The position numbers and the translations under genes are program-made. From a virus, in the IMG/VR virus record IMGVR_UViG_3300029566_000004: a DNA stretch of 64,000 nt. One strand, written 5' to 3'. The first letter of the stretch is position 1; each line of letters begins with the position of its first letter. Below, piece by piece: positions 3,127 to 45,126 of the stretch. The notes beneath the pieces are model-generated. The model ran no database searches, had not been told where the DNA came from, and saw nothing but the letters and a program-made list of their open reading frames with translations.

Positions 3127-5696
3127 TTAAAAAGCACTTGGCTCTTCTGTAAATATTTTTAAATCTTCTATCGATTGAATTGCATAATCATATGAAGTGC
3201 AAAACATTGGCTTAATACGACAACAGCCCAAATCTGCTTTACACCACAGATATATTCCTTTCCATCGTCCACGCCTATTTTTATATACTGATAATTTTAA
3301 ATTCGGTGTATCAAACGTATTAGAGCTTAAAATTGTCTGTAATGCTTCTAAATCTTCTGATTTAACTGGAAGATAAATACCACCCCAGTCAACTTTATCT
3401 GCAATAGCTTTTGCACCACGCAATAAGTTTTGGTCAGGAGTTGTAGCTTGTTGATAATCCATATTTAACTGCGTTGCAGACATTATAAAGATTCCATACT
3501 TATTACATATATCTTTAAGCCGAATGGAAAGCATGTATAAGATATTATCTTCTCGAAGTTTAATTCCGCCACTTCGACGAGTGATTTCTTCCAATATTTT
3601 AAGGGAAGTATGAATATAGTCGTGACACGTTATTCTCATATTTCTATGAGCGCTGACTATCTCTTACTACATAAAAATTTTTATGTAGGACACCTTTTCG
3701 GCATTTAACTGGCTTCGTTTCCTAAAACCAGACTACGTATCAATAGTAGCCCTACTCCCCCGTCCAGAAGACCTGGGGGATAGTCGATACAGCTTCTTTT
3801 TTTAGACGTTATTCCAAGTTCTATTTTTTATTATATCAGCGACTGTTGATCTAGAACATTTATATTCTTCTGCTAATTTACTATAAGATATTTTTTCATT
3901 TTGATATCTTTTTCTAATTTCATTAGCTATTTCCTAATTCATTTTTGTATGTCTTCCTTTTTCAATATAGTCTGGCATAATATTTTTATATCTTCTTCCA
4001 GACCAAATATTTAAAAATGAATTATAATGTAGTCGTTCTGAATATTTTTCTTTATAAATTTTACTTGGACTTTCTCCATTTTTATAAGCAATACGTAATT
4101 CTTTTATCTCGCTTGGGGTTAACTCTGCTTGCCCCCAAGTTAATTTTTCTTTCTATTCCAATGTTTTTGGCTTAGAAGCGTTTTTTCCTCCAATTTCAAT
4201 ATTATATCCATTTGGAATTAATGTATTATACTAAATAATATAATATTTTTCTAATTGATTTAATATATCTATATCGGGAATATCTTTAACTAATATTTCA
4301 TAAGTAAAATTTTCAAATCCATATTTTCTAAACGCTCTATGCAATGGTGAATTATATTCACTACTGTTTTCATTTTTATATGAACTTTTATGATTATTAT
4401 ATCTTTCATTTTTTGGACTAATTGATTGTCCTATATATTGCTTATTATTAATTTGATTTATAAATCGGTAAATAATTCCCATAAAATCAACTCCTTTCAA
4501 TATCGTATGAAAATAGTCAATTATATTTTAATTACTCCCGTCCAAAAAAAGTTTGCCACGGGATTCCCATGCATTACTGTTTAGGGTTCCCCGTTAGCCA
4601 CAATTGTGACCCCGCTGATTAGCGGAAAAGTGTTTCACTGTCCCGTCACCCTTTCAATAGGGTCGAACACGTATTTAATGTCATGATCACGGATATTTTT
4701 CTTAATTTTATCCTCAACGTCTTGTAGGGAGAAGTCAGGCAACTGTTCAATATATAGCGGGGCACTCGCAAGTACTGTGGCGGCTTCGCGGACTCTATCC
4801 TCTTCATCACCTTGATATTTTCCATTAATAATATGCTCCTCATTTACATTTGCTAAAAACGCAAGCATCATTGTTTGCAATTCTTCTATATCTTGCTCTG
4901 TACTTATATACAAAGTCGGTTCACAAGTTCCATTTTTAATCCATCCAAAAATTTCATCATAAATTTTATTACAAGAAATGAAACAAGCATCTGCAATCAT
5001 ACTACGAGATTTACCAACGCCAGTAGGAGCTGAACGCAGATAAAATTTCTTTAATCGTGCGCCTCTTGTAACTGTGTTGATAAGTGGACCATATAATGGT
5101 ACTCCAACTTCTGGATATGCTTTCAAGCGGTCAATTAATTCTAATGCCCCTTCTCCAGCTTGTGTTGCTTCGCCAAATTCATTATCTACATATTCAGCGC
5201 GAATAGACTCAATTTTCCCATCAACCTTGTTTGCAATATCTTCTAAGGTTGAATTATCTAACCATTCTTCTTGCATTTGTTTGCGTTTAGTATCTAAAAT
5301 ATTATCTGGGTCATAGATATCTGATACATCAATACCATATTTATCATATGCTCGCAATAATGACATTTTCTTCATTCTGCTATAATAATAATCAAATGCA
5401 TCAGGGATTGCCGCTTCAGATACTTTAGCTAACCATTCATTTCCCTTATTGTTTTTAAATACTGCTTCTGCCTTGGGGCGACTACTAAAAAAGTCAGCAA
5501 TATTTTCTAATGTAATTTTTTGTGCACCCAATTCATAAATTTTATATATAGCACCAAAGGTAACACGATGAAATTCATCAGGAAAATCTTCATCTGTGAT
5601 AGTATATTTATCTGTGAAGTCCAATAGACTAGGATTATTATAAACGCATCCAATAACTTGCATTATACTTGGAACATCAACATACTTACTTGCCAT
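3127..5696 (-). CDS. dnaB: DnaB-like replicative helicase, split by a group I intron (exon 1 4666..5696, exon 2 3127..3625)
   Basis: Exon 1 has an N-terminal DnaB-like domain and Walker A RSAPTGVGKS. Exon 2 continues ..HDYIHTS..SATQLN..GAKAIADK... The proposed junction gives ..DIKYVF|HDYIH (Walker B region), with the 5' exon ending in U and the intron ending in G. ATG 5696 has an AGGAG RBS. Confidence 0.8.
3626..4665 (-). mobile_element. group I intron (T4 td-like core) in the helicase gene, carrying a GIY-YIG ORF
   Basis: Contains GCTAACGGGGAACC...GGAATCCCGTGGCAAAC and CGACTATCCCC...GGGGGAGTAGGGCTAC. As I recall the T4 td intron core, it has closely similar elements (CTAAACGGGGAACC / CAATCCCGTGCTAAA / CGACTATTCC..GAAGTAGGG). 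The same blocks recur in the intron at 8787-9381. Confidence 0.7.
3802..4482 (-). CDS. GIY-YIG homing endonuclease (intron-encoded), three in-frame TAGs
   Basis: MGIIYRFINQINNKQYIGQS.. GIY-YIG motif with an AGGAG RBS. The frame stays open to TAA 3802 only if the TAGs at 4231, ~4150 and ~3934 are read. The C-terminal ..TVADIIKNRTW.. looks like a helix-turn-helix. Confidence 0.75.
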
Positions 5697-6198
5697 CAAT
5701 ATTCTCCTCATCTAAAAATGTAAAAACTTTTCTTTTTTTCATTGGTTCACGCTGTGGAGATTTTATAACTACCACAACTTCATTAGGTTTCTCAATTACC
5801 TTACCCTCATTTAATTTTTTAGCTAAATATAATTTATAATAATACTCTTTAGCTGCAGGATAAACATATGGTACAATACCAATAGTTGGATTAGCGAGAG
5901 TAGGACGATTATGTAAAATTTCAAAATAATAAAATAATGTGCGATATATGCCAGAATATGAAAAACCTAAACGGCTGATATATTCAGTTATTTGTTTTTG
6001 AATATTTGGATGAACATAATCCATTTTGAAAAGTTTTTTTACATATTCTTCTAATTCAATTTGTTCATGACGTTCGACAGGAATATTATTAATGCTACAT
6101 TGTTTGTGTGCATATCGTTTTGTGTTTTCAATCTTAATACACTCTTCTTTGTCCCTATCGAACATTTGACCGCAATAGTAACATTTTACTCGATGCAT
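5686..6198 (-). CDS. hypothetical zinc-finger protein
   Basis: 170-aa ORF. N-terminus reads CYYCGQ...HKQC. Confidence 0.5.
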   Translation of the reverse strand: MHRVKCYYCGQMFDRDKEECIKIENTKRYAHKQCSINNIPVERHEQIELEEYVKKLFKMDYVHPNIQKQITEYISRLGFSYSGIYRTLFYYFEILHNRPTLANPTIGIVPYVYPAAKEYYYKLYLAKKLNEGKVIEKPNEVVVVIKSPQREPMKKRKVFTFLDEENIDGK

Positions 6199-19892: not shown

Positions 19893-22430
19893 TTAAGTTA
19901 ATTTTCTTGCCAAATCGGCAACTTTACTACGATGAACATATCGTAATTCAATTTCGCCATATATATCAGTATTGCGGAATACTTTTGACACTCTTTTCAT
20001 TCCATTATGAATACCAGCATATGCGGGTGAATCAACTTGTGTTTTATCATCACCATCAATAATACATATTGAATTTTCACCAATGCGAGTGAGCGCAAGT
20101 TGCATCATATCTATATCCAAATTTTGAGCTTCAGAAATATATACACCACTATTATCAGGTGTTTCATATCCACGAATATCAGATAAAGGCAATAAAATCA
20201 ATTGTTCATTATCAATTAATGCCTCTACCTCCATACGACTACCTAATTTACTAATTAATAAGTTACCAATTTGTGAATCAAGTAATTTTTCATCACGAGT
20301 ACCGGGATAATCATTTTAAAGCCTTATATTTTTCAATATAAGATAGACTATATCTTAATTTCGGTTTAATAAAGTTTTATATAAATCATATTTTCTTTGT
20401 ATATACATAGTAGAATCGTTATAAAGAATATCTAAAATTTTTGTTACCTATTTATATCCTCTCCACTGACAATGCCAAGCGGTAGTATAGAAAGGCTTAT
20501 TATGTTCTGTTTTATTTATTAAATTATCTATTAATAAAACAAGTTCATTTGCTATACCTTCATGGTAACTTGTAAAATTTAAAGTAACATCGCTACTTTT
20601 ATTTTCACTGAAACTTATACTACCATCTCCATCAATTAATCCACGTATAAAATCCCTTAAAAATTTTTGTGGAATATTTTTAGGAAGAGAATTAATTTCA
20701 TAGGTTTTATTTGGTACTATATTATATTTTTGTAAATCTTGATATATTTGTTCATCACAAAATTCTAAACTATAGCATTGATTTCCTCTATTATCTAAAA
20801 TTAAATCACTATCAATCTAAAGAACAGTTTTTAATTTATCTAAGATATCTCTATCTTTAGCCTATAACGATATTCTAATTCGCCCTTGCTTTCCAGGAAT
20901 TTTACTAACATTACCATCGGTAAAAAGTAAACCTATGAAATAAGCTTTATCTGGAGAGTCTATACAAGAAAAATAGTCACTAATTATTCTTTTGTTAACT
21001 CGATTGGTTGTCTTTTTAGTTAAACCCAATTCTTTTATTAAATTTCTTAAGGTTTCTTTATCCCAACCAAATTCTTGAGCCAATGTTTTTAAATCTTCAC
21101 TCTCTTCGCAATAGCGTTGTTTCAAAATTTTTAACTGTTCATTAGTTAAAGTTTTCTTTTTTCTTCCGCCTCGGATAGGAATATTAGCCTAAACTATAAA
21201 TTCTCTAACTTGTCGATAGTTATACTTTGAATTTTGTGATAACCAAGTAATGGATTTACCGTTTACATATTCTTGAATAATTTCTTCTTTTGTCATTTTG
21301 ATTTCCTTCTTTCTTAAAATATTTTCTATTATATATAATTTTTAAAGAAAGAAGTTTTTCTTTTTTTGTCCCGAAATTTCCTGCGCTTCGAAAAATAATT
21401 ATATTTTTCTACTCCCTTGCGGGATAGTCGTTGAACCTTCCTCTATTCGAGGCTTGGCTGCTGATTGCCCAATCTTTTTAATTTTCATACTTTCACACTT
21501 AGACTTATTTCATTCTTATGTTGTAGTTTAAAAAGCTTAAGGGGTTTCCAGCAATTCACAGGATTTTACTAGAGCTTATCCCTTTGTTAACCCTAGCTTT
21601 GCGCTATTCCTAGTCGCAACAGTATTACAAAATATTACAATTTTACTGATTTGTCCTTTTTCCAATTTGGAAAATAAATAACCGAGTGCAAGAGTAGTTT
21701 TACCAGAGCCTGGCGCCCCCTTAAGCATTGTGACTTGATTTTGTAAAAGACTATCAACCGCACAAGCTTGATATATATCTCCGCGAATTGATTTAATATC
21801 GCCAAATAGTCGTGAAGAAAATACACCATACTTTAAATGCCTATGCGACATTCCAGTCCATACTACTGTATCTATTGGTTTATGATTTTTATCACATATA
21901 ATTAAATATTGTCCGATATTTAAATTATATATATTTACATTTTGATTTGAATAAAAATAACTTAATTCATCATCTGATAAAGTTTTTTCCATATAACCAG
22001 TATACTCTGGTTCTTGGTCATATCCAACCATTTCGATTGAATCATTACCAAAAATTAAATTAGATAATATAAATAAAGACATGTCATTTGTTACAAATAC
22101 AACTTCATCAGGATGATATTTTATATCATAATAAGTTGCGCAAGCTAAAATTCGCATATCGTTATTATCTAAATATAATCCAACTTTCTGTAAAGGCTCA
22201 AGCATTTCTGGTTGATAATTAATTACATCGTATTTATCAATATTATGGTATAATTGATTTAATAATTGTCTTGCCGTATATTTTATATCAGAGTCTTTAT
22301 TGGCAGATACTTTTATCAATTCCAGCTCTTCTAAAGTAATTGATGAAATGGCAAATCGATTATTAAATAACTTACTTCCCATCACTAATAGACTGCTGGT
22401 ATCATAAAATTTAAAAGTTGTCGTCCTCAT
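19893..22430 (-). CDS. phoH: PIN-PhoH-like ATPase, split by an intron (exon 1 21590..22430, exon 2 19893..20311)
   Basis: Exon 1 has an N-terminal PIN-like region and Walker A LKGAPGSGKTT. Exon 2 reads ..YPGTRDEKLL..SEAQNL..IIDGD... The proposed junction ..NSAKLGY|YPGTRDEK restores the PhoH (I/L)G(F/Y)LPG motif. The 5' exon ends in U and the intron ends ..AAAATG. Confidence 0.75.
20312..21589 (-). mobile_element. intron (probable group I, different family) in the PhoH-like gene with a LAGLIDADG ORF
   Basis: A 1278-nt insertion interrupts a conserved motif. Its boundaries obey the U / terminal-G rule. I did not fold the core. Confidence 0.6.
20316..21296 (-). CDS. LAGLIDADG homing endonuclease (two motifs), five in-frame TAGs
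   Basis: MTKEEIIQEYVNGKS.. N-terminal HTH. Motifs ..AYFIGLLFTDGNV.. and ..FIRGLIDGDGSI... The frame is open from 21296 to TAA 20316 only with TAG read-through. I checked it codon by codon over 20750-20864. Confidence 0.75.
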
Positions 22431-25480: not shown

Positions 25481-26911
25481 TCACATTTCTGATGCGATAT
25501 CTGCATCGGCAACATCAATTGCCTCTTCAGTTATAATACCAGATAAACACTTAAATGTGAAATTCTTGTGTTTATAGGCAGTAAATGAAGGACGATTTAC
25601 AATACGGACCACTACACCTTCGCGCACATGGGTTTTACCTATTGGGTCTGGACCGTCGCAGTAAGTTTCAGCAGCTTCCATTACCCATTCTCCGGGAGTT
25701 TTAGTAACATAATCAATAATTCCTTCACTATTTAGATATAGAATATTGCGGTCATTACTATCTGGAATGCGGAGCTGCTCAAACACAGGAACAGTTTTAC
25801 AACCCATTTGCTCACAACGATAACGCATATAGTCAGGAGTATATTCTACGACATTGCCATCCTCATTAGTCATAGTCATACGATATACATAGAAATCAGA
25901 CTGAGACACAGGCTCTGGGATGCTAAATACACTGATTTCATCACGATAGAATTTTTTGCGCTGACCAGTTGGCTCACAGCCATATGAGAATACAGTAGTA
26001 GGACCATACTGACGCTCAAATTCTTTATCGTTTAACTTTTTATTACTTACTGATCCCATAATAGGCGCACCAGAAGTAGTAAAACCAACAACTTCGTAGA
26101 ATACTTCTTCACCCTTATGAAGTTTGCCTTCGAAGAACTTTGCGTGTGGCTCACGGAATTCATTAGAGCCATAGAAACCGCCATCGAAATTGTCAAGTAC
26201 AGTACGACGAGTACCAGTTACATAACCCCAATCATAAATTGGCTTGCCGGGACGACGGAATAGTTTGTCCCAAAAAGTGCGCTTCATACCCTTAAACACT
26301 GGCAGATAACCGGTGCGCTGAGAGGTGCCATGCAATTTGAGTGTAATCTCAATCTCGTCACCAGGCTTAAAAGCGTTAAGATTATACGCAAGTTGTTCAG
26401 TATCGGCGTGCTCGTTAAATAAAGGCGCAATAGGTATATTCTTAGGCTTATTCTTACGAGTGCGGTTTGGGCTATTAAATTCATTATGAGCCTTTACCTT
26501 AGGAATATATTTATCACAAATCCCGTGGCCATTAAGCTCATGGATAACAGCGCCTTCAGTTAAGAGAGACATATCTACACCAGTATATGCTACTGAGTCA
26601 AGAGCCATAAAGATACCATCAGAAGGTTCTCCGCGCAAACGAATAGTCTTGATGTTGCGCTTATCAGGCTCAAGATATCCACCAACATTTTTACCAGTTT
26701 CATCCTTGCGACGTACAAGATTATTCTGTGCGCAAAACTCTTCGCTTAACTGAAGCCCAGATGGGAAATAAATACCCATATCACCAAGTTTTACATCCAG
26801 ACCAACGCAAGTTTCACAGTCAAAGAACTTAGCGATTTGTAACTTATTGGCGTTCATATGTGGACGCAACTCTTTTACTTTCACTACATAACCACAGTGA
26901 GTAATACTCAT
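25481..26911 (-). CDS. ATP-dependent RNA ligase (DraRnl/NgrRnl-like: N-terminal OB-like domain + nucleotidyltransferase)
   Basis: Candidate motif I ..ITLKLHGTS.. (KxHG, as I recall for DraRnl KIHG). N-terminus ..GYVVKVKELRPHMNANKLQIAKF... AGGAG RBS. ATGA overlap with the upstream exonuclease gene. Confidence 0.6.
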   Translation of the reverse strand: MSITHCGYVVKVKELRPHMNANKLQIAKFFDCETCVGLDVKLGDMGIYFPSGLQLSEEFCAQNNLVRRKDETGKNVGGYLEPDKRNIKTIRLRGEPSDGIFMALDSVAYTGVDMSLLTEGAVIHELNGHGICDKYIPKVKAHNEFNSPNRTRKNKPKNIPIAPLFNEHADTEQLAYNLNAFKPGDEIEITLKLHGTSQRTGYLPVFKGMKRTFWDKLFRRPGKPIYDWGYVTGTRRTVLDNFDGGFYGSNEFREPHAKFFEGKLHKGEEVFYEVVGFTTSGAPIMGSVSNKKLNDKEFERQYGPTTVFSYGCEPTGQRKKFYRDEISVFSIPEPVSQSDFYVYRMTMTNEDGNVVEYTPDYMRYRCEQMGCKTVPVFEQLRIPDSNDRNILYLNSEGIIDYVTKTPGEWVMEAAETYCDGPDPIGKTHVREGVVVRIVNRPSFTAYKHKNFTFKCLSGIITEEAIDVADADIASEM

Positions 26912-27783
26912 TTTATATCTCCTTTCTGAACAACAGTCCAATTTAAATTTTGATAAGTCAATTTATTCATATCTGACCAAATAATTTTTTTTGCAAGTGC
27001 TTTGTTGTCACGCTTATACTTAGGCATTGTTTTACGAATATGATTACACAGCCAATCACAAGCCTCTGTAAAAGTATTAAAACTATGTTTAAGTGCTTTA
27101 GTATCAGCATCATAAGCATATATGCATTCAGTATTATTGATAATTGCTTTGCGTGCTTTAGGATCAAGGCCCAAACGTGTAACTGCGGGCTTTGTTCCTT
27201 TCGCTACGAGTGCAGATTTATTTATTTCTGTTTTAGGCTCATAGTCCGGGAAAGGATGACCTTTTACCGTACCTCCTTGGTTCACCTCATCAAAAACAAT
27301 TTTGAGAAATTCGGCATCTTCAAGAGCATTATGCGTCTGAACGAATTCCTCTTTTTTATAATAATTTACAACTTTAATAAGAGCAATTTCTTTAATTAAT
27401 CCAAAATGATTTTTAACAGTAGGAGCATAATTCACAAGGTTAGCCGCAATCAAAGAAAGTGACATTTGTGCGGTTATGCTAGTAGCTTTTTTAATTGCTT
27501 TACGCACAAATGTTAAATCTGTATTGCCATAACAGAAAAAGCGGCAAGGTGTGCCATCATTATGTTCTAATACCCAATAGAAAAAATGAGTAAATACATC
27601 ATCTAAACTGGGCGCCGCTTTATTCATTCCATCAGTAATACCAGTTAAATTAGTAATAAAAGAAGTAATTTTCTTATCGGTATAAACCATACTGGAAAAT
27701 TTTGCATCTGTCTCACTAACGCAACCAATTGAAATAATTTCATTGGAAAATTGTGTTGCTTCAAAGTCAATAAAATAATTCAT
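26908..27783 (-). CDS. DEDDh 3'-5' exonuclease-domain protein
   Basis: Exo I ..FIDFEAT.. and Exo III ..HNALEDAEFL... Confidence 0.7.
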   Translation of the reverse strand: MNYFIDFEATQFSNEIISIGCVSETDAKFSSMVYTDKKITSFITNLTGITDGMNKAAPSLDDVFTHFFYWVLEHNDGTPCRFFCYGNTDLTFVRKAIKKATSITAQMSLSLIAANLVNYAPTVKNHFGLIKEIALIKVVNYYKKEEFVQTHNALEDAEFLKIVFDEVNQGGTVKGHPFPDYEPKTEINKSALVAKGTKPAVTRLGLDPKARKAIINNTECIYAYDADTKALKHSFNTFTEACDWLCNHIRKTMPKYKRDNKALAKKIIWSDMNKLTYQNLNWTVVQKGDIK

Positions 27784-32084: not shown

Positions 32085-32426
32085 ATGGCAGATACTTTAC
32101 GCATTAAAAAAATAAAATTAAACGATGGATCTGTCTATGCGATCTTCGATGAAGGTTCATTACGTTTAAATGACAATAATGTTTTAATTACGGGTAATAA
32201 CATAGTTGACAATATGATTATTAAGGGGTCTTTACAAATTACTGAAATTGATGATATTCCTGTTAATAAATCGCTCGAATATGTTTTAACCTGGGATGCC
32301 TCAATTGGGGCATTTTATAAATGTACCTTAGCAGATTTATTTAGTAATGATATTTATGAATTATCTGTGGATAATAATAACATTCTTACATTAAATAATT
32401 TATATGCTAATACAACTATTCAATAA
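32085..32426 (+). CDS. hypothetical late protein
   Basis: 113-aa ORF with a GGAG RBS. Confidence 0.5.
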   Translation: MADTLRIKKIKLNDGSVYAIFDEGSLRLNDNNVLITGNNIVDNMIIKGSLQITEIDDIPVNKSLEYVLTWDASIGAFYKCTLADLFSNDIYELSVDNNNILTLNNLYANTTIQ

Positions 32427-32452
32427 ATTTACAAAGAAAAGAGGACAAATTT

Positions 32453-33661
32453 ATGGCATATGATGCTAATGATTTGGTTATAAAATAGATTCAAGCATCA
32501 AATGGTTTGCATGAATTAGATGCAAAATATTTTGATGGTCATAAGTGGTCAGATGTAACAGAATTGGTAGAAGCGGGTTTTGAAGCTACCATTATGACAA
32601 CTCTTCCCACGATTACTAGTGAAAATTATAATACATATCGTAATACCTTAGCTTTAAAGGCAGACGAAAATGCTGAAGCTGGTACGTATTTGGAATATAT
32701 TGTAGTTAAAGAGGGTAGTACTCAAACTCCCACTTATACTTGGGAACAAATTGGTAGTACAAAAACTAATTTTACAATTCCAACAGAACCGTCAATTACT
32801 TTAACTGTTAGCACAGCTTCTACTACAGTCCATACTACTAATAATGGTAGTCAAACCGCTACTGGAAATGCAAGTATTGTATATGATAAAGCAACCAGTA
32901 TTGGCTCTGCGGGTGGAGCTACTGCTACTGTTGAAATTACAGTTGACAAGTTAGCGCCTACTATCACTGAGAGTACTGGCGGAGCCAATATAAAGAATAC
33001 GAGTTAGCTGGCAGCATCAACAGTTGATACTACTGAAGATGGCAGTCATACCCATTCTGTTACCACTACTGCGCATAGTCATACAGTTTATTTAAGTTCC
33101 AGTTCTAAAACTGTTGTTACTAATGTAACTAAAACTGGTGCAGCTGGTGCTCATACACATAGCATATCAGTTAGTAGTTCTAGCACTCCTGTTATAATTT
33201 CCGCAAGCGTTAATAATAATATCCTAAGTTTTGGCACAGCTAACGTCATTTCTTCTATTAATGCAGCTAGCGCAACTGGAGAAGCCGGTGGTCATACTCA
33301 TAGTATTACTCCTATTACTGCAACCATCAATCATATTACAGGTGCCACTTTAGCTGCTAGTGCTCCTAATGGAACTGCAACCTCTGCCGGCACTCATAGT
33401 CATAATGTTACGATTGCAGCTCATAGTCATACTTATGTTGAGCTTAAAGCGCATACTCACGCTATTGCTACTATCAGTGCAACATATAGCGGCGATGCTA
33501 CAATTAGTGAACATAGTCATACTATTAATTATACTACTACAACTGTTACTGGTACTGCTAGTGTTGCGGTTGCAAGTCATACTCATAGTGTTGTTATACC
33601 TGCGCATACTCATACCGTAACCGTACCTGCTCATAATCATAGTACAGCTGCTGGTTTATAA
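32453..33661 (+). CDS. tail fibre with C-terminal HxH-repeat domain, two in-frame TAGs (32486, 33005)
   Basis: MAYDANDLVIK-TAG-IQASNG... After TAG 33005 the frame stays open to TAA 33659-33661. That stretch has no Met (so it is absent from the ORF track) and 11 HxH motifs (HTHS, HSHT, HNHS...). Confidence 0.7.
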
Positions 33662-33729
33662 AAAATTATTTAATGAAGGGAGAGGATTTAATCCTCTCTC
33701 TTTAATTAATTTAAAGGAGATAAAGGTGT

Positions 33730-34884
33730 ATGAATTATAAGATTTGTATTTATGCAATTTGTAAAAATGAAAAAGAATGGATTAATCGGTGGATAGATAA
33801 TATGTCTGAAGCTGATTATATCGTTGTTTTAGATACAGGTTCAACCGATGGATCTTATGAAATGTTAAAAGAAGATTCTCGTATAACTCGTGTTGAATAG
33901 AAAATCATTAATCCTTGGCGTTTTGATGTAGCACGCAATGAATCAATGAAATTGGTTCCAGAAGATACCGATATTTTTGTTTGTACTGACTTTGATGAAG
34001 TGTTTGAATAGGGATGGGCGCAAGTATTACGTGATAATTGGCAACCTGAAGATACAAGATGCTATTATACATATGCATGGTCACATAATGCTTTAGGTGA
34101 GCCTCAAGATGTATTTAAATATGATAAAATTCATGCAAAAAATTATCATTGGGTATTTCCAGTGCATGAAGTATTAGTTCCAAACGATTTAAGTAAACCA
34201 GAAGTTGCTTTAGACGCAGGCGAACATATTTATTTACATCATTTATAGGATATAAGTAAACCGCGCGCCTATTATTTTGATTTGCTTAAAATTGGCGTAG
34301 AAGAAAATCCTGCTAATTCGCATTGTTAGATGCTATTAGCGCGGGAATATTTACTTAAGCAAGAATATGATAATGCGCTTGAAGCTTATGAAAAATGTTT
34401 ACAATACGCTGATATTTATGAGCCTAACAAAAAAATGGTTTTATGTGAGACATATGGAAGATTAGGTGATTTATATTATTGGCATAAGCACAACTTGAGC
34501 GAATCTGTTAAATATTTTAATAAATGGATTGAAGTTGACCGCACGTATCGTGAACCTTATTTTTGTTTGGCTGATATATATAATAATCAGGAACTTTATC
34601 CCTTAGCAATTGGATTAGTTACTACTGGATTAATCGTTGGTCAGCGTCATTATGATTGGGTTGAGCGCAAGGATAATTGGATTGCTAAAGGCGAAGAACT
34701 TTTATGCTATTCTTATTTAGGTTTAAAAGATTATTCTAATGCAATTGTACATGGTAAATTAGCATTAGCACATGACCCAAACAATGTAACGCTTTTACAA
34801 AAATATACAATGGCTCTTGAGGGTTCGATTGCAGGAATGACGCAATCAAATAATAATAGTAACGAATCATTGCAAAAACTTTGA
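33730..34884 (+). CDS. family-2-like glycosyltransferase fused to TPR repeats, four in-frame TAGs (33898, 34009, 34246, 34327)
   Basis: MNYKICIYAICKNE..VVLDTGSTDGS..NPWRFDVARNES..CTDFDE.. followed by TPR-like ..LLAREYLLKQEYDNALEAYEKCL... All four TAGs are in frame by coordinate arithmetic. Confidence 0.7.
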
Positions 34885-34935
34885 AAATGATGGATGCGGG
34901 CGAGGATCGTTAAAATAAAAAAGGAGGATGATTGA

Positions 34936-36930
34936 ATGAATGAAATTTCGAAAATAATTATTCCAGGAAATACTGTTCCTTATGACTTACGTGATGATTA
35001 TGCGCGCGAAAGAATTAATAATAGCCATTTATTTATTGTTAGTCCGTTAACGACGAGTATAATAAATATATATACTTTATTAGGACGGGTGGTAGAACCT
35101 TATGAAGGATTAATGCTACATATTTTATGCACAAATAATAATAACGACTCGATTACCCCCACATCTATTCGATTAGCAGCGAACGAATTACCAATTGAAA
35201 TTGAGTATTCTAATTTTATTCGCCGCCGCCCAATAAATGGTGGGATTTACAGTTTTGTTTTACATTATATACCCGAAGAAGAGACGACTCCTGCGCATTG
35301 GAATTTTTATCCGATAGATGACACATTAAAATCAAAAGGTGTTGAAATTATTGAGTATACTACCGAAGCCGATGCAGCTCATGCACAAGTAAAAAAAGCA
35401 TTGAGTCAAAATATATTACCAGTTGTGCACTATATTGATACAAATGCTGACAATTATGAATATTGGCTACCATTATATGAATATGCTACTGATAAAACTA
35501 GTTTTATTTTTTCAGCATCTACGGCATATACTTCCAGTGAAGATATTTCGTTATCTTATATTAGAATAAATTTAGACTCTACGACCTGGGCTATTGATAA
35601 CTGTGGAACTAATACGGTTAATATTCCCACAATGGCTTAGGCAAAAGGATTATTTTATGGGACTTGCTAGACCAGCAATGCCACAGCTGCAAAGACTGTT
35701 ACAGGAGTTGCTGATTGGCCAGAGGCTTTTTTTGCCGGTTAGACAATTTTAATCAAATTTCAACATGGTAATAATGTTAAAGAAAATCTTACTTTAAGTA
35801 TAAATGGATCAACTCCAGCTCCAATAGTAGCTTATGATGGTGTTAGCCCTGCGACGATATGGGCAGCTGGCTCAATTTTATTATTTATTTATAGTGGTAC
35901 GGATTGGCGTTTAGTCGATGGTCATAATAATGTTAAAATTTTAGGTGATTTAGGTATGGGGTATGGCTCTTGTGCCAATGCATTAGAAGCAACTGCTAAA
36001 AATGCATCTATTCAAGATTATGTATTAACAACTGGAAGTCTTGTAGCAATTAGATTTACATATAGCGTACCTGCTGGTTCTACTTTAAATATTTCTGGCA
36101 CTGGCGCAAAAGCAATTTATTATAAAGGTGCGCCTATTCAATCTAATATAATTAAAAATAATGATACTGCGCTATTTGTTTATACTGGTTCCGTATATGA
36201 ATTATTGACTACTACTTCAAAAAATTTATTGCCATTAACAACAAGTACTGATTATATTGTATGTACTACATCTGCTAATAATAGTATTAAAATAGCAACA
36301 TTAAGTGGATTTACATTACCAACTGCAGCAAACCCCTCTGGACATAGATTTGCGGTTAATTTTAAGAATTCAGTGCCCGCTAACGCACAATTAAATATTT
36401 CTAGCACTGGAGCTAGACACATTATTTGTAATAATGCAAATATTAGCGCAAATACTATTCAAGCTAATGATGTTGTCATATTAGAATCTTCTTGGAATGC
36501 TTCGTTGGCTACAGCTCAATATATTGTGCGTGCGATTGATCGCAATAATATACGACATGTTTATGAGAATTCAATACGTATACGCAATACTACTATAAAC
36601 AATGCTAACGGACATATCTACGAGTCACCGACAGATATTAAAGGGTACTGGAGTGCCACAACATCAACAGGTAGTACGACAGCTACCAATCCTACAATAT
36701 GTTTATATAATAATACAAATGGTTTCACAAATATTGCACCTGACATGGTACATTAGATAATAGGATCGGCATATATAGAAATTGGCTCGCGAAAACATAT
36801 AACTCCTATTATTTTAGATCAAATTGATGTATCACGCACTGCTTTTTTACAGGCTCATTTGGCGAATTTTTCAGCGCCCGCTAATAGCACTCCTACTTAC
36901 TATTTGCAAATAATATGTCCTAAAAAATGA
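34936..36930 (+). CDS. receptor-binding/tail-fibre-like protein with repeated ..C.T..TAAK..G..V.(I/V)(K/R)F..N..LN(I)..TGAK.I.Y.. modules, four in-frame TAGs (35638, 35668, 35740, 36754)
   Basis: ORFs 34936..35640 and 35956..36756 share one frame and are bridged by three TAGs. The module repeats are continuous across the TAGs. The true stop is TGA 36928-36930. Confidence 0.65.
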
Positions 36931-36941
36931 GGTGATTAATT

Positions 36942-37823
36942 ATGGCAAAATATTATCCTGAAAATTTTATTAAATGGGCTTTAACACATGTTAAACGCTC
37001 CACTATTCCTTCAGATGCAAAATTACCATTACCTATTGCAAAATGTGGTACTGAACCTTGGAATTATTTATTTGGCAGTGTTCGTGTAATGACAACTCAA
37101 GCGACTATTGACTATTATTTTAACAATCATTATAAAAATAAAATGACACGTATTGAATATAATGCAATTACTGATGCTTGGAGTCGTACAGGTTACGCGA
37201 CTGATTGTCAAGGTCTCTTGGATGCCTGGATGACTCATGAGATGAACAACAAGACGGATATCAATGCCCAGATGAATTATGCAAACTGGTGCACAGATAA
37301 GGGATCAATTGCAAGCATAAATCGTCCATATGTCATTGGAGAAGCTGTTTTCATGTATTCAGCTAGATCTAAAAAAATGACACATATCGGATGGATTTGT
37401 GGATTTCGCGCAAATGGTGAACCTCTTGTCGTTGAGGCACGGGGCATTGCGTATGGCGTAGTTGTAACTGAATTGTCAAAACGCAATTGGACTCATCGCG
37501 GTTTAATGACTGCAAAATTTGATTATACTAAACATCAGGAGGAACCTAAACCTATGTCTACAATTAAATTTGAAAAAACAAATCCAATGAAAATTGGAGC
37601 ACCTTATTTAGCCATGCAAAAAGCCTTAAACGCAGCTGGTTATACAGACGCTACTGGTAAAGTATTAGTAGAAGATGGAAAATGGGGTACTAAATCTTAG
37701 CAAGCATTTGAGAAATTGATTAATGCACATATTACAATTCCTGAACCAGAAAAAGTAAATCGTATTACTACATTTTTTTCTCCAGATGGCAAATATAAGT
37801 TCTCTGTTATTTTAGAGAAATAA
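36942..37823 (+). CDS. cell-wall hydrolase (Cys/His NlpC/P60-like) with C-terminal peptidoglycan-binding repeat; putative endolysin; one in-frame TAG (37698)
   Basis: ..TDCQGLLDAW..THIGWI.. then ..LQKALNAAGYTDATGKVLVEDGKWGTKS-TAG-QAFEKL.. (PG_binding_1-like). Stop is TAA 37821-37823. Confidence 0.55.
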
Positions 37824-37861
37824 ATTTAATAATAAAAATAAGAAAGGAAAGGAAGAATAAT

Positions 37862-38635
37862 ATGTCTTCAAGTCCAATTATTTTAACTACTACAAATTTT
37901 AGCACTTTATTTAGTGAAATTTATAGTGTAGTACATCCCGGCACAGGAGAAAATAATAATAATATTGGCAAAGTTTTATAGGTGGGTAATGATGGTAAAG
38001 TTACTTTTACTAATGATATTGTTACTAGTACTGGTTTAAACGCTTTAGAAGCGCGTGTTACGAATAATGAAACGGCTTTAGCCAATAAAGTTACTTTAGA
38101 TGATATAACAACCGCACTTAATACAGCTCGTCCAGTAACCAATAGTGCAAGTGCAAAATTGCAAACTGCAATTCTTAATCAAGCCGATGTAGCCATTGCT
38201 GCATAGTTAAATACTGGCGCTATTGGCGCAGCTATAATTTCAGCAACAACAAATATGGTAACTACAAGTGATGTTACAACAGCTATTAGTAATGCTAAAA
38301 AAGAACTATCTGCTGTTAAGGCTAATAGCGATTTAGCAAATGTATTAGGTTTTGCTAAAGGTAATAATACTAATCTTATAGCTCCTGACGGTACAGCATT
38401 AAATAAAACTAGTGTAACTACTATTAAAGAATATATTGATGTTAATGATGCTGAATTATCTACAAAAATAGGTAGCGCACCAAATAGTACTGTTGCATTA
38501 AATACATTAAAAGCTAATTTAGGTATTACAACTAGTGGTGATATTAATATTTGGCAAGCTATTGAAGCAATTTCCAATAAAATCGGTAATACAGTTACTG
38601 TTAGACCTTCCGATTTAGGCATATCTACTACATAA
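37862..38635 (+). CDS. tail-fibre/structural protein, two in-frame TAGs (37979, 38204)
   Basis: MSSSPIILTTTNF...GKVL-TAG-VGNDGKVTFTND...AIAA-TAG-LNTGAIG... Three ORF-track pieces lie in one frame. Confidence 0.6.
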
Positions 38636-38702: not shown

Positions 38703-40232
38703 TTATTTAATTCGTGTATACATTTCTCCGTCGAGAACATCAAGCATAAGCTCAAACGCAGTTTTACCTTTCATAATCTGCTCAAATAGTACAGGACTGA
38801 AGCCGCTAACGAAGGTGATACCATCTTTTACAGTCATAGGAATATTATTCTGACGAGCTTGCACATTCCAAAAGATGAGATTAGGCATCTTTAGACCCCA
38901 TGCACGCCATTTATCAGCAATATGTTCCATGAGAGCACCACTATTATTATCACTCCATAGACGCGCAGCATCAAATTCCATATCTGAGATGATGATTATA
39001 TTCTGAGGAATATCTTCCTTCTTCACATCAGGACGAAGTGCTATTTTAAGAAGAAGATCAAAAGTAGCTTCAATATCAGTGTTTTCACAAAGATTAGTAC
39101 GGTAAATACGTGCAACCTTATCACAGAAGTCAACACCTTCAGTAGCTATCCACTGAGGACGACTAGAGAAGCTAATGTAATGTCCTGCAAAAGGTCCTTT
39201 GTTGTGTTCGGCGCAATAAAGACCAAGAGAAATAGCAACATTAATAGGTGCAGATGCCTCACTGCCCCTCATAGAACCAGAAGTATCAACAACTGCAATG
39301 CCATTAAAGGTTGCGCCTTTAAAGTAATCAGTCAAATTCTCCCAATATTTATTAACTGCCAGACGATTTATATCATCAAGAGCAGGCTCAAAGTCACTAC
39401 CAAAGTCACTACACCAACCTAAACTTTTCCGCATAACATTTGTGGCGGCTGCAACGCATTCATAAGGATGAAGCGCCTTAGCATTAACCTTAGTTTTAGT
39501 ATCCTTCATGAAGTCTTCATAAGTGGTTTTGCCGATTTTCTGACGTTCAATATCGTGACGAGCAAAAGCATTGCGATAAATCATACCGGCGCGAGAAGGA
39601 ATTTTGTCAAATTCAATTTCATTCCAACGTTTTGCAGACATCAGTCTTTCAAGAACACGAATACGTTCACGAAGGCTAGAAAGTGCTTTACGATACTCAC
39701 GAGAAGTAAGATTAAACTTTTGGCGAGTAAGGGTTGCAAGCTGACGGCTCTCATGGCTAGAAGTATTTTCAGATTTAAGCCATTTAGCAAGCAAAGAGGG
39801 GGTCTTGCTCTTAAGATCAAGAACAAGCTGTTGCTTCATCAGGTAGAACATCTTATCCTCAACAGGAGTTCCTACAAGAGCATAAAGATCGTCCCAGCGA
39901 CCATAAAAAGGAATGTTCTCAAGATTACGAATTACATCTTCAGGATGATTTTTTGCAAGCCAGTTAAGGACAACGCGGAAGTAACGACGCTCACCCTGGC
40001 CACCGCGTACGGAGCGCAAATAAAAAAGGCACTTAAGCGCACGAAGCGCATCTTCTTCATAAGCCTTCTTAAAGAGCAGAATGCAATCTGCGTTGGAGCG
40101 GGTACGGTACGCGCCACCGAGTGCAAACATATCAAGTAGACCGCTCATAGTAGACTTGTGAGTCAGAGCACCATTCTCGGTAACAGCATAGTTGTTCGCG
40201 TTATTCATTACGTTCATAAAAGTATTAGCCAT
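38703..40232 (-). CDS. helical N-domain + C-terminal vWA (MIDAS DTSGSM) protein, DUF2828-like; architecture resembles Ro60/TROVE
   Basis: ..TENGALTHKSTMSGLLDMF..YLRSVRGGQGER.. then ..AVVDTSGSM... ..FVSGFSP... Confidence 0.5.
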   Translation of the reverse strand: MANTFMNVMNNANNYAVTENGALTHKSTMSGLLDMFALGGAYRTRSNADCILLFKKAYEEDALRALKCLFYLRSVRGGQGERRYFRVVLNWLAKNHPEDVIRNLENIPFYGRWDDLYALVGTPVEDKMFYLMKQQLVLDLKSKTPSLLAKWLKSENTSSHESRQLATLTRQKFNLTSREYRKALSSLRERIRVLERLMSAKRWNEIEFDKIPSRAGMIYRNAFARHDIERQKIGKTTYEDFMKDTKTKVNAKALHPYECVAAATNVMRKSLGWCSDFGSDFEPALDDINRLAVNKYWENLTDYFKGATFNGIAVVDTSGSMRGSEASAPINVAISLGLYCAEHNKGPFAGHYISFSSRPQWIATEGVDFCDKVARIYRTNLCENTDIEATFDLLLKIALRPDVKKEDIPQNIIIISDMEFDAARLWSDNNSGALMEHIADKWRAWGLKMPNLIFWNVQARQNNIPMTVKDGITFVSGFSPVLFEQIMKGKTAFELMLDVLDGEMYTRIK

Positions 40233-43878: not shown

Positions 43879-43952
43879 TGGTGCGGGGCTGCGGATTTGA
43901 ACCGCTTTTTCAGCTTTTTAAAGCTGAGGGTATACCTTTAGCCTAACCCCGC
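43879..43952 (-). tRNA. atypical tRNA-like gene with an 8-nt anticodon loop UUUAAAAA
   Basis: Acceptor GCGGGGT/GCCCCGC, A73, CCA. Perfect 5-bp stem TCAGC/GCTGA encloses 8 nt. The D stem is weak and the variable loop short. Confidence 0.5.
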
Positions 43953-44073
43953 AATATAAAACAAAACGTATTTTTCTTCACTCACTCAAAATAATTCATT
44001 TATTGCTACATACGTTTTTATATGGTGCGGATGGAGGGATTCGAACCCTCAAGGATTTCTCCCGACGGATTTT

Positions 44074-44808
44074 CTTACTACTCTATGTTACCATAGCCGC
44101 ATTATTGCGTTGTAGTCTGGATCATGTCTTCTCCATATCTTTCGACTTAGGAGGCTGGTGTATGATCTCTACACATTTACAATCTAAATGATTGATTTAG
44201 CTCGGCGTTATCCCAGTAGGACTTTCGCCGAATTAGCCAGCATTCACTCAGAAGATTTCTCACTCTGGTGCTCTATTTGCAGAAATAGTATTTTTTCTTC
44301 TACGCCAATTTGGAGTATAAGAATGACAGTTTGGACATAATAATTGAAGATTTTCTAAACGATTGTCTGTCCTATCTCCATTAATATGATGGATTTCAAG
44401 AGTAATTGGTTGTCCTAACCACTCTGTTAATCCACAGCATTCACATTTACGTCCTCTCAATTTAATTAAAGGATTTAATGTTGTGCTGCCATTCTTTTTA
44501 ATTGAATTTACTGTAAATAATGTGTAATCATAATTCTCATGATTCCATGCTTGTCCTAAAAAATGTGAGGTATCAAGTTGAAGTTCTTGACACATTTTAT
44601 TTAATGAAGTTAATGCTCCGCCACTGTCTCTTGCATATCCAAGGGCTATTGCAACTTCACGCATAGACTACGCATTTTTTACAATTTCTTCAATTTGTTC
44701 TTTTGAAAAAGATTTCCATTTTGGTTCTCTTGCCATAATATAGACCTCCTTTTTTCTTGTCTATTTATTATGGCAGAGGCGATAGATATTTTAATCTACT
44801 CTGCCCAA
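44074..44808 (-). mobile_element. group I intron in tRNA-Leu(UAA) carrying an HNH endonuclease ORF
   Basis: The 5' exon ends in U and the intron ends ..GTAAG. A candidate internal guide GAGU pairs with exon ACUU. About 257 nt are non-coding, including ..TCCAGACTA.. / ..TAGAGTAG... Confidence 0.7.
44260..44735 (-). CDS. HNH homing endonuclease (intron-encoded), one in-frame TAG
   Basis: MAREPKWKSFSKEQIEEIVKNA-TAG-SMREVAIALGY.. and C-terminal ..CECCG..HHINGDRTDNRLENLQLLCPNCH... Confidence 0.75.
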
Positions 44809-44876
44809 AAGTCCGTTGTGTATGCCATTCCACCACATCCGCACAGTAAGTTTTCATTTCTTTTTCTTACATATAT

Positions 44877-45037: not shown

Positions 45038-45126
45038 TGGCTGGGGTGGAGGGATTCGAACCCCCATCTTTCGCCTCAGAAGCCCGGCATTTAGAGTGCC
45101 GTGTGTTGCCATTACACCACACCCCA
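45038..45126 (-). tRNA. amber suppressor tRNA, anticodon CUA (reads UAG)
   Basis: TGGGGTG-TG-GTGT-AATGGCA-ACAC-A-CGGCA-CUCUAAA-TGCCG-[19 nt]-GGGGG-TTCGAAT-CCCTC-CACCCCA-G-CCA. All stems are Watson-Crick apart from one G-U pair in the T stem. Confidence 0.85.

Follow-up and report, generated by a model that had tools for sequence, protein, structure and literature searches.

A predicted group I intron with an HNH endonuclease frame in its P1 loop splits the tRNA-Leu(UAA) gene of a TAG-recoding phage

A split transfer RNA (tRNA) gene, tRNA-Leu(UAA), was found in a window of 64,000 nucleotides (nt) from the IMG/VR virus record IMGVR_UViG_3300029566_000004. The window is the whole stretch of DNA that was analysed and represents 64 kb of a gut-type phage genome of roughly 135 kb. 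With intron search on, ARAGORN placed a tRNA-Leu(taa) at precisely 44023..44842 (−), interrupted at position 35 by an intron of 735 nt; the same region was skipped when intron search was off. The joined exons (34 + 51 nt, with CCA encoded) were recognized by ARAGORN as an 85-nt class II tRNA-Leu(UAA), in agreement with an earlier interpretation made from the letters of the DNA (hereafter the sequence-only reading). The 5' exon ends in ...ACGGACUU (RNA ...GGACUU) and the intron in ...GUAGUAAG, such that a U precedes the 5' splice site and a terminal G precedes the 3' splice site, which is the boundary rule that this reading had claimed. The 3' exon starts with AAAAUCCGU and ligation would give the anticodon loop C-U-U/A-A-A-A.

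A T-run at the 5' junction makes the boundary ambiguous in the window copy. The junction was placed after U34 because the introns of the related contigs L003, L004 and L005 begin with CAGG and are free of this ambiguity. The boundaries ...CUU/ and ...AAG/AAAA were kept in 112 viral and 100 cellular loci among the matches listed. Insertion between U34 and A35 of the anticodon UAA, as had been read from the sequence, was thereby supported by both ARAGORN and the CAGG-starting relatives. This is the 'CUU/a...g/AAAA' site of the classical cyanobacterial and plastid tRNA-Leu(UAA) intron, and the proposal that the two share a position held up, the ribozyme homology described below extending to a cyanobacterial copy. 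Two kinds of deviating ARAGORN calls were rejected: 'tRNA-Stop(tta)' for L006, where the T-run ambiguity was responsible and the family junction gives Leu(UAA), and 'tRNA-Arg(ccg) with 737-nt intron' in L002 together with similar calls, which were artefacts without a ribozyme match.

The ribozyme was searched for with the Rfam group I intron model RF00028, as the sequence-only reading had suggested. In E-value mode the model matched 44292..44095 (−) with 42.8 bits (local E 2.5e-9), which lies below its 50-bit gathering score. Among relatives, L006 scored 58.1 bits, above the cut-off, and the others 41-47 bits. A family alignment (A1) of 45 distinct viral introns shorter than 230 nt and devoid of an open reading frame (ORF) was complemented by a covariance model (R1) built from it, the window and its close relatives being left out. 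R1 scored the window at 155.5 bits (E ~2e-38) over 44288..44070 (−), so that a group I core was detectable by both covariance models.

The full group I structure, comprising P1, P2, P3, P4/P5, P6, the P7 pseudoknot, P8, P9 and P9b, left 94.8 % of cells in A1 paired, as compared to 30-40 % when the 3' partners were slid as a control. Compensatory changes were observed in 33 of the 51 A1 pairs, a number reached by 0 of 500 shuffles, and affected 8 of 9 pairs in P2 and all pairs in P3 (6/6) and P9b (5/5). Upon addition of cellular copies (alignment A2), 92.7 % of cells were paired and 43 of 45 pairs were compensatory; the fold is hence backed by covariation across 45 to 87 relatives. In the window copy, 41 of 45 model pairs are canonical, with the four exceptions at helix ends or in a register-shifted P5. 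The U.G pair at the 5' splice site (U34 44809 with G44273) and the terminal guanosine (ωG, 44074) are invariant in all relatives. P7, the guanosine-binding helix, encloses the P3 3' strand and P8. It reads GAUCAU/AUGAUC in the window lineage and GACUAU/AUAGUC in relatives, two base pairs having been swapped in a compensatory manner. By sequence and covariation, the insert classes as a group I ribozyme, of the compact type known from bacterial tRNA introns, the family to which the cyanobacterial/plastid tRNA-Leu and the Azoarcus tRNA-Ile introns belong. IC3-like features include the lack of P2.1 and P5abc, a GAAA loop L2, the P8 motif CCUAAG...UAUGG and a GUAA loop L9b; a tentative IC3 label follows from homology to tRNA introns so termed in the literature. 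The P8 motif is one we take to be 11-nt GAAA receptor-like, and together with the L2 GAAA it suggests, by analogy with the Azoarcus ribozyme, a predicted L2-P8 contact.

The internal guide sequence lies far from the 5' end of the intron. The trinucleotide GAG directly 5' of P2 is invariant in 45 of 45 ORF-less relatives and forms C-G, U-A and U.G pairs with the exon in all of them. The window and the HNH-bearing relatives align to this GAG inside a conserved GAGCAC, which in the window is found downstream of the ORF; the pairs are a G44273·U34 (44809) wobble, A44272-U33 and G44271-C32. As the guide stands after the ORF, the ORF is an insertion in the P1 loop. Two elements would close this loop. 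Next to the guide, the pair between intron position +1 and the base 5' of GAG (44808 with 44274 in the window) is standard in 18 of 19 introns with an ORF in the P1 loop (A-U in 7, U-A in 5, C-G in 3, U.G in 2 and G.U in 1). Further outwards, RNAduplex predicted a long-range duplex of the initial ~32 nt of the intron with the ~36 nt preceding the guide, at -19.9 kcal/mol in the window (z -5.6 relative to shuffles). The mean z was -3.0 over 19 introns, and the sequences involved vary between lineages; equivalent leader pairings of different sequence were present in L004, L005, L006 and L007.

Table 1. Features of the split tRNA-Leu(UAA) gene in the window and of ribozyme matches in two other phages.
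Feature	Coordinates	Strand	Basis or remark
Split tRNA-Leu(UAA) gene	44842..44023	−	ARAGORN with intron search
5' exon, nt 1-34, ends C32 U33 U34	44809..44842	−	ARAGORN, spliced tRNA, CAGG starts of relatives
Group I intron, 735 nt, ωG at 44074	44808..44074	−	ARAGORN, Rfam and family covariance model
Leader, 5' strand of extended P1	44777..44807	−	Pairs with 44308..44274; RNAduplex
Shine-Dalgarno AGGAGG, 8 nt upstream of ORF start	44750..44745	−	Read from sequence
HNH endonuclease ORF, 158 codons, ATG 44736, stop TGA 44262..44260	44260..44736	−	Pfam, PHROG
In-frame TAG, codon 23 of HNH ORF	44670..44668	−	Conserved upstream residues; recoding elsewhere
3' strand of extended P1, within last codons of ORF	44274..44308	−	RNAduplex; +1/N' pair
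Internal guide sequence GAG, intron nt 536-538	44273..44271	−	Invariant in ORF-less relatives; R1 alignment
P2 hairpin, GAAA tetraloop 44259..44256	44245..44270	−	Covariation; ORF stop codon in 5' strand
P3, 44241..44236 with 44158..44154	44154..44241 (domain)	−	Covariation, R1
P4, enclosed by P3	44231..44226 with 44207..44202	−	Covariation, R1
P5 and P6, enclosed by P3	44222..44210 and 44201..44173	−	Covariation, R1
P7 pseudoknot, GAUCAU 44167..44162 with AUGAUC 44125..44120	44120..44167	−	Covariation
P8, CCUAAG...UAUGG motif, tetraloop-receptor-like internal loop	44131..44153	−	Covariation
P9 domain: P9 ACUAC/GUAGU, P9a CGCA/UGCG, P9b CUAUG-GUAA-CAUAG, then AAG with ωG	44074..44119	−	Covariation, R1
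3' exon, A35 to CCA	44023..44073	−	ARAGORN
Atu_ph07 split tRNA	L167 1251-1612 = NC_042013.1 about 112,890-113,251	−	R1; RefSeq 'hypothetical protein' gp154 overlaps part
L111 ribozyme matches	1172-1390, 2492-2690, 3860-4063, 5531-5738	−	R1

The ORF in the intron encodes an HNH endonuclease, as had been stated earlier: both Pfam HNH_3 (31.9 bits, cut-off 24.8) and HNH (23.4 bits, cut-off 21.4) scored above their cut-offs and PHROG 10822 matched with E 8e-44. The motifs CxxC...HH.NG..(D)N...NL..LCPNCH are conserved with the catalytic motif intact, homologs of 28-99 % identity are found in the introns of relatives, and the Shine-Dalgarno sequence is kept there as GGAGG or GAGG. A PDB sequence search with the HNH protein returned nothing significant. 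The 22 residues before the TAG are conserved among homologs that have no stop at this position. Because this upstream N-terminus is conserved, the TAG at codon 23 must be decoded for the full protein to be made; together with TAG read-through in other window genes this sustains the earlier view of it as a sense codon. The last ~16 codons of the ORF also supply ribozyme elements, namely the P1-extension 3' strand, the guide and the P2 5' strand, with the stop codon inside P2. A ribosome that reaches the end of the ORF would thereby have to unfold the ribozyme, and judging from the overlap, full translation of the ORF and folding of the ribozyme should be mutually exclusive on one RNA.

The split gene belongs to an array of at least 25 tRNA genes on the minus strand at 43.5-51.9 kb. 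ARAGORN detected no second tRNA-Leu(UAA) among 25 array genes, and in 30 long window ORFs TTA accounted for 41 % of Leu codons and TTA and TTG together for 56 %. On account of this usage and the lack of another tRNA-Leu(UAA) in the array, the spliced tRNA would serve the commonest Leu codons. The phage reads amber TAG as sense. TAG codons are spanned by Pfam domains in GT2/TPR, GIY-YIG and LAGLIDADG ORFs of the window and a tRNA(CUA) is encoded at 45038..45126 (−), 200 nt upstream of the split gene. This tRNA(CUA), called 'tRNA-Pyl' by ARAGORN, has a Gln-like acceptor end (U1-A72, GGGG, G73, CCA encoded). At 89 nt, ~20 nt of which form the variable region, it departs from the usual Gln-type tRNA; tRNA(CUA) genes of a similar kind, 89-94 nt in length, occur in L001-L003 and in the TAG-recoding phage L290. 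Another array member at 43879-43952 (−), ~70 nt downstream of the split tRNA-Leu and present also in L002, has an 8-nt anticodon loop, was called 'taaa' (Leu/Phe?) by ARAGORN and scored 34.5 bits with the Rfam tRNA model.

Relatives were searched for in viral genomes using a DNA pattern made from a P9 strand, ωG and the 3' exon, which matched at least 120 contigs. Among the matches listed, 112 viral loci, HNH-derived loci included, parse as tRNA-Leu(UAA) split at U34/A35. These amount to 97 distinct introns, 48 of them short and ORF-less (178-260 nt), 8 intermediate and 41 long; 33 of the 41 long introns encode homologs of the window HNH protein. The same 734-735-nt intron, with 96-99 % protein identity, was present in three IMG/VR contigs of 129-139 kb, and other large viral contigs carry HNH proteins at 59-72 % identity. 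The ORF occupies one of two positions. It is placed either in the P1 loop before the core, leaving a tail of 160-230 nt, or it starts ~165-195 nt into the intron and ends 57-110 nt from its 3' end, presumably in the P8 loop.

The HNH family was also found outside introns. L008-L011 each have a free-standing homolog (44-48 % identity), located ~90 nt downstream of an intact tRNA-Leu(UAA) and without a ribozyme (L008 2828-3417; L009-L011 2810-3414). The anticodon loop of the adjacent tRNA is UUUAAGU and not CUUAAAA, and may be a cleavage-resistant variant of the target. In the cultured phages S-CRM01 and Xoo-sp15 and in Gordonia and Rhodococcus phages the family is free-standing inside tRNA arrays. 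A hidden intron was ruled out for S-CRM01, where the annotated 'tRNA-Leu overlapping HNH' proved to be a free-standing HNH gene between two intact tRNAs with no ribozyme, and likewise for Xoo-sp15. The distribution fits a tRNA-Leu(UAA)-specific endonuclease that repeatedly colonised the intron of its target. A tRNA-Leu(UAA) without the intron is present in L290; its junction is exactly the ligated one and its identity to the window exons is 89-96 %. Its flanks are unrelated to the window and only the tRNA is in common.

Several tRNAs may be split in a single phage. L111 (IMGVR_UViG_3300031998_003058), a 10-kb contig with a 20-gene tRNA array, gave four R1 matches of 100-171 bits, and several different tRNAs of this phage may thus carry group I introns. 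Two other structured RNAs were observed close to the intron-containing tRNA-Leu of relatives, namely a ROOL RNA (322 bits) at L004 4990-5593 and a RAGATH-33 RNA (140 bits) at L005 2420-2532.

A stricter pattern was employed for cellular genomes and matched at least 120 contigs. The matches listed came from Alphaproteobacteria, Acidobacteriota, Bacteroidota, Clostridia, candidate phyla radiation (CPR) bacteria and one cyanobacterium; 100 of these contigs parse as the same split tRNA and 88 of the 100 are ORF-less. Three Bacteroidota copies have HNH homologs in the P1 loop. R1 matched at least 100 cellular tRNA-Leu introns, including the cyanobacterial intron L268 (Phormidesmis) at 168.5 bits, whose core is 63 % identical to the window. 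Core identity to the window was 98 % for L003, 76-79 % for the other HNH-bearing phage copies L004-L007, 74-77 % for the ORF-less viral copies L085, L100 and L155, and 72-75 % for five copies from metagenome-assembled genomes (MAGs) of uncultured Clostridia, whose exons are alike too. Gut Clostridia hold the closest cellular copies among the matches listed. Going by these identities, the phage probably infects gut Clostridia and shares the tRNA-plus-intron lineage with them.

The family extends to GenBank phages. The cultured jumbo Agrobacterium phage Atu_ph07 encodes a tRNA-Leu(UAA) with an unannotated 278-nt family intron (R1 174.6 bits). In the 595-kb phage LR756511 the intron version is 700 nt long, with an HNH homolog match abutting the ribozyme, and by blast match alone the 735-kb phages LR756501 and LR756503 match an ORF-less intron query over 85 % of the query length. 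Blastn and megablast with the locus and with 24 kb of the window returned no close relative among GenBank phages. The ribozyme query further matched by blastn within the capsid gene of Pelagibacter phage HTVC120P (MH598807.1 19653-19807) and at NC_055880.1 66786-66834 of the crAss-like phage cr111_1, adjoining a GIY-YIG 'intron endonuclease'; related ribozymes may accordingly reside in phage protein genes. According to Hausner et al. 2014, the phage introns known at the time were all located in protein-coding genes, even though phages have many tRNA genes (PMC3984707). Devoto et al. described introns in tRNAs of Lak phages as 'to our knowledge' the first in phage tRNAs, with no class assigned (doi 10.1101/356790), and the survey of Williams 2020 covered bacterial genomes only (doi 10.1101/2020.01.27.920355). 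In our literature search, outside subscription-only papers, no phage tRNA gene was reported to contain a group I intron.

The explanation of the locus as a whole that we consider highly probable is that pre-tRNA-Leu(UAA) must lose a 735-nt group I intron in order to function, by way of the RNA, homing and regulation steps proposed here. C32-U33-U34 would pair with the guide GAG (44273..44271) to form a short P1 with a U.G wobble at the splice site, as in other group I introns. The long-range helix between the leader and the end of the ORF would close a P1 loop of roughly 500 nt, and the P2 to P9 core with its P7 pseudoknot would fold next. By analogy, exogenous guanosine would then attack after U34 and the G at 44074 would direct exon ligation, resulting in the loop CUUAAAA. 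The HNH protein of the P1 loop would be a homing endonuclease that cuts or nicks tRNA-Leu(UAA) genes lacking the intron, in hosts or in co-infecting phages, whereupon repair would copy the intron in. Finally, the TAG at codon 23 would keep the ribozyme region free of ribosomes until the phage tRNA(CUA) is available.

A more far-reaching version combines a timing switch tied to the code change with a widespread, overlooked class of tRNA-array introns, perhaps exchanged with host tRNA genes; this we regard as possible, if doubtful. Early on, ribosomes would stop at the TAG, leaving the P1 extension, guide and P2 free, and splicing would supply the only tRNA for the commonest Leu codons. Later, as tRNA(CUA) accumulates, transcripts on which the TAG is read through would yield the endonuclease and would be blocked from splicing. 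For another phage clade, Borges et al. put forward that an intron endonuclease is delayed by recoded stops, and by extension the recoded stop in the window HNH ORF may cause such a delay. Translation of intron ORFs is described as tightly controlled, which protects ribozyme folding (PMC3984707, refs 35 and 36).

A number of observations weigh against loss of the intron by self-splicing and against the homing and regulation steps. Splicing of the window intron is itself something we infer from sequence. At the gathering threshold Rfam reported tRNAs only in the window, RF00028 missing its curated threshold, P1 is limited to three base pairs with the exon and the intron yielded no convincing P10. 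The minimum free energy fold of the 72-nt leader (intron 1-72) lies at -19.3 kcal/mol and includes a local hairpin at 44806..44772, which competes with the long-range P1-extension helix. The TAG falls in a variable alignment column that does not reveal the encoded amino acid. Moreover, no closely related genome without the intron at a syntenic site was found, and recent mobility is for this reason not demonstrated.

This last point is shared by the reading in which the intron splices and homing into the tRNA-Leu site is not, or has ceased to be, the task of the HNH protein, which instead might have another target in the tRNA cluster or act as a maturase or in phage exclusion. Such a role is unlikely, although it has substance, as homologs often stand free by other tRNAs, for instance between tRNA-Leu(CAA) and tRNA-Ile in S-CRM01, and in Xoo-sp15 and the Gordonia and Rhodococcus phages. 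The family nevertheless recurs inside tRNA-Leu(UAA) introns at two loops and beside intact tRNA-Leu(UAA), as would be expected for a gene-specific enzyme, and the catalytic motif has not decayed.

The low RF00028 score, the very short P1 and the competing leader hairpin could also be taken as signs of a decayed relic that does not splice, the locus being a tRNA pseudogene carrying a selfish HNH gene. This is improbable given that the core pairs are intact (41/45), that P7 of the window lineage changed by compensatory swaps, and that the intact exons give a tRNA of normal fold. In addition, the gene is the sole tRNA-Leu(UAA) of the array while TTA is the commonest Leu codon. The short CUU/GAG P1 is invariant in the 45 ORF-less viral relatives and CUU/...G/AAAA is seen in cellular copies too.

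The sequence-only reading had instead assigned the pairing with exon ACUU to a GAGU near the 5' end of the intron (44801..44798), which would place the ORF between P1/P2 and P3. Pairing of the two tetramers is possible and can be seen in the sequence, yet the assignment did not survive comparison and is now very improbable. The tetramer is not kept in the closest HNH-bearing relatives (GAGA in L004, GACU in L005 and L006, GACG in L007) and overlaps the strong local hairpin, whereas the conserved guide, 535 nt into the intron, corresponds to the invariant GAG 5' of P2 in ORF-less relatives, where the window aligns and the flanking pair covaries. An assembly chimera as the origin of the split, or insertion of an HNH cassette without a ribozyme, has a negligible chance, as the 734-735-nt arrangement recurs in three independent IMG/VR contigs of 129-139 kb and the ribozyme scores 155.5 bits with R1.

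Removal of a group I intron from pre-tRNA-Leu(UAA), as the preferred explanation, would have consequences beyond this phage. With at least 120 viral contigs, uncultured phages of 595 kb and 735 kb and the cultured Atu_ph07 as relatives, the intron is common yet unannotated in phage genomes. Its presence affects annotation, as the tRNA-Leu gene is overlooked and the ribozyme region is given spurious 'hypothetical proteins'. A dedicated HNH family is often paired with the intron and can be seen at three stages, as a free-standing gene by its target, inside the P1 loop and inside a 3' loop. The locus bears on the spread of the ancient tRNA-Leu intron between bacteria and phages, and would be a natural case of physical coupling between stop-codon recoding, expression of the endonuclease and folding of the ribozyme.

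Other selfish and recoded genes were observed in the window. An ORF with several in-frame TAGs in the region 20355-21565 (−) matched LAGLIDADG_3 (E 6.5e-13). Directly upstream of it, a weak R1 match at 21416..21565 (13.1 bits, E 0.07, P3-P7 region) may mark another group I intron, one that interrupts a protein-coding gene; an Rfam search at this site returned nothing. The ORF at 3802-4527 (−) is homing-endonuclease-like, with GIY-YIG and HTH domains and three in-frame TAGs, and the selfish endonuclease genes of the genome fall into three or more different families. A plus-strand block (32411-38635) encodes GT2/TPR and repeat-rich tail-fibre-like proteins with multiple in-frame TAGs, and the minus-strand replication genes (topoisomerase II, NAD ligase) are mostly without TAGs, which suggests that recoding is concentrated in one gene set. 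Near the array, an RNA ligase (PHROG 968, 25481-26941 (−)) and a 509-aa 'RNA-binding protein' (PHROG 850, 38703-40232 (−)) may form a tRNA repair module.

The classical cyanobacterial and plastid tRNA-Leu intron, reportedly described by Kuhsel and colleagues in 1990, is the known system closest in position. The window intron has the same tRNA, the same U34/A35 site, the same CUU/AAAA loop and a compact core. It differs in that the classical copies are ORF-less and ~250 nt long, while the window intron lies in a phage tRNA array and holds an HNH ORF, ~520 nt with its leader, in the P1 loop; this ORF has a recoded TAG and overlaps the guide and P2. Its nearest cellular relatives among the matches listed are furthermore in gut Clostridia MAGs and not in cyanobacteria. 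In the Anabaena intron, P1 is said to use only three loop nucleotides (Zaug and colleagues, 1993), as in the window. The junction of the classical intron has been written as 'CUU/a...g/AAAA' (Williams 2020, doi 10.1101/2020.01.27.920355).

The Azoarcus pre-tRNA-Ile intron, an IC3 model (PMC13168695), is likewise a compact ribozyme of ~200 nt in a tRNA anticodon loop, with a similar P1/P1ext arrangement and no large peripheral domains. Unlike the window intron, it interrupts a different tRNA at a different position and has no ORF. J3/4-P4 and J6/7-P7 are presumably strongly similar in the two. The endonuclease I-Ssp6803I is a member of the PD-(D/E)xK family. It is encoded by the Synechocystis tRNA-fMet intron, according to the part of PMC3984707 that refers to Bonocora and Shub 2001; in the window, by comparison, the endonuclease is HNH, the gene is tRNA-Leu rather than tRNA-fMet and the host is a phage rather than a cell.

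Lak megaphages resemble the window phage in carrying tRNA-gene introns under an alternative code (doi 10.1101/356790), but those introns interrupt tRNA Phe, Gly, Thr and Tyr and their class is unassigned, as opposed to the clear group I ribozyme in tRNA-Leu of the window. T4 SegB is free-standing in the T4 tRNA cluster (PMC2330249), as members of the window HNH family are in phage tRNA arrays, but is a GIY-YIG enzyme that is not intron-encoded. Phage group I introns with HNH homing endonuclease genes are represented by those of I-HmuI (SPO1) and I-TwoI (Twort) and by the Bastillevirinae introns (PMC11878797), all of which, in contrast to the intron of the window, reside in protein-coding genes.

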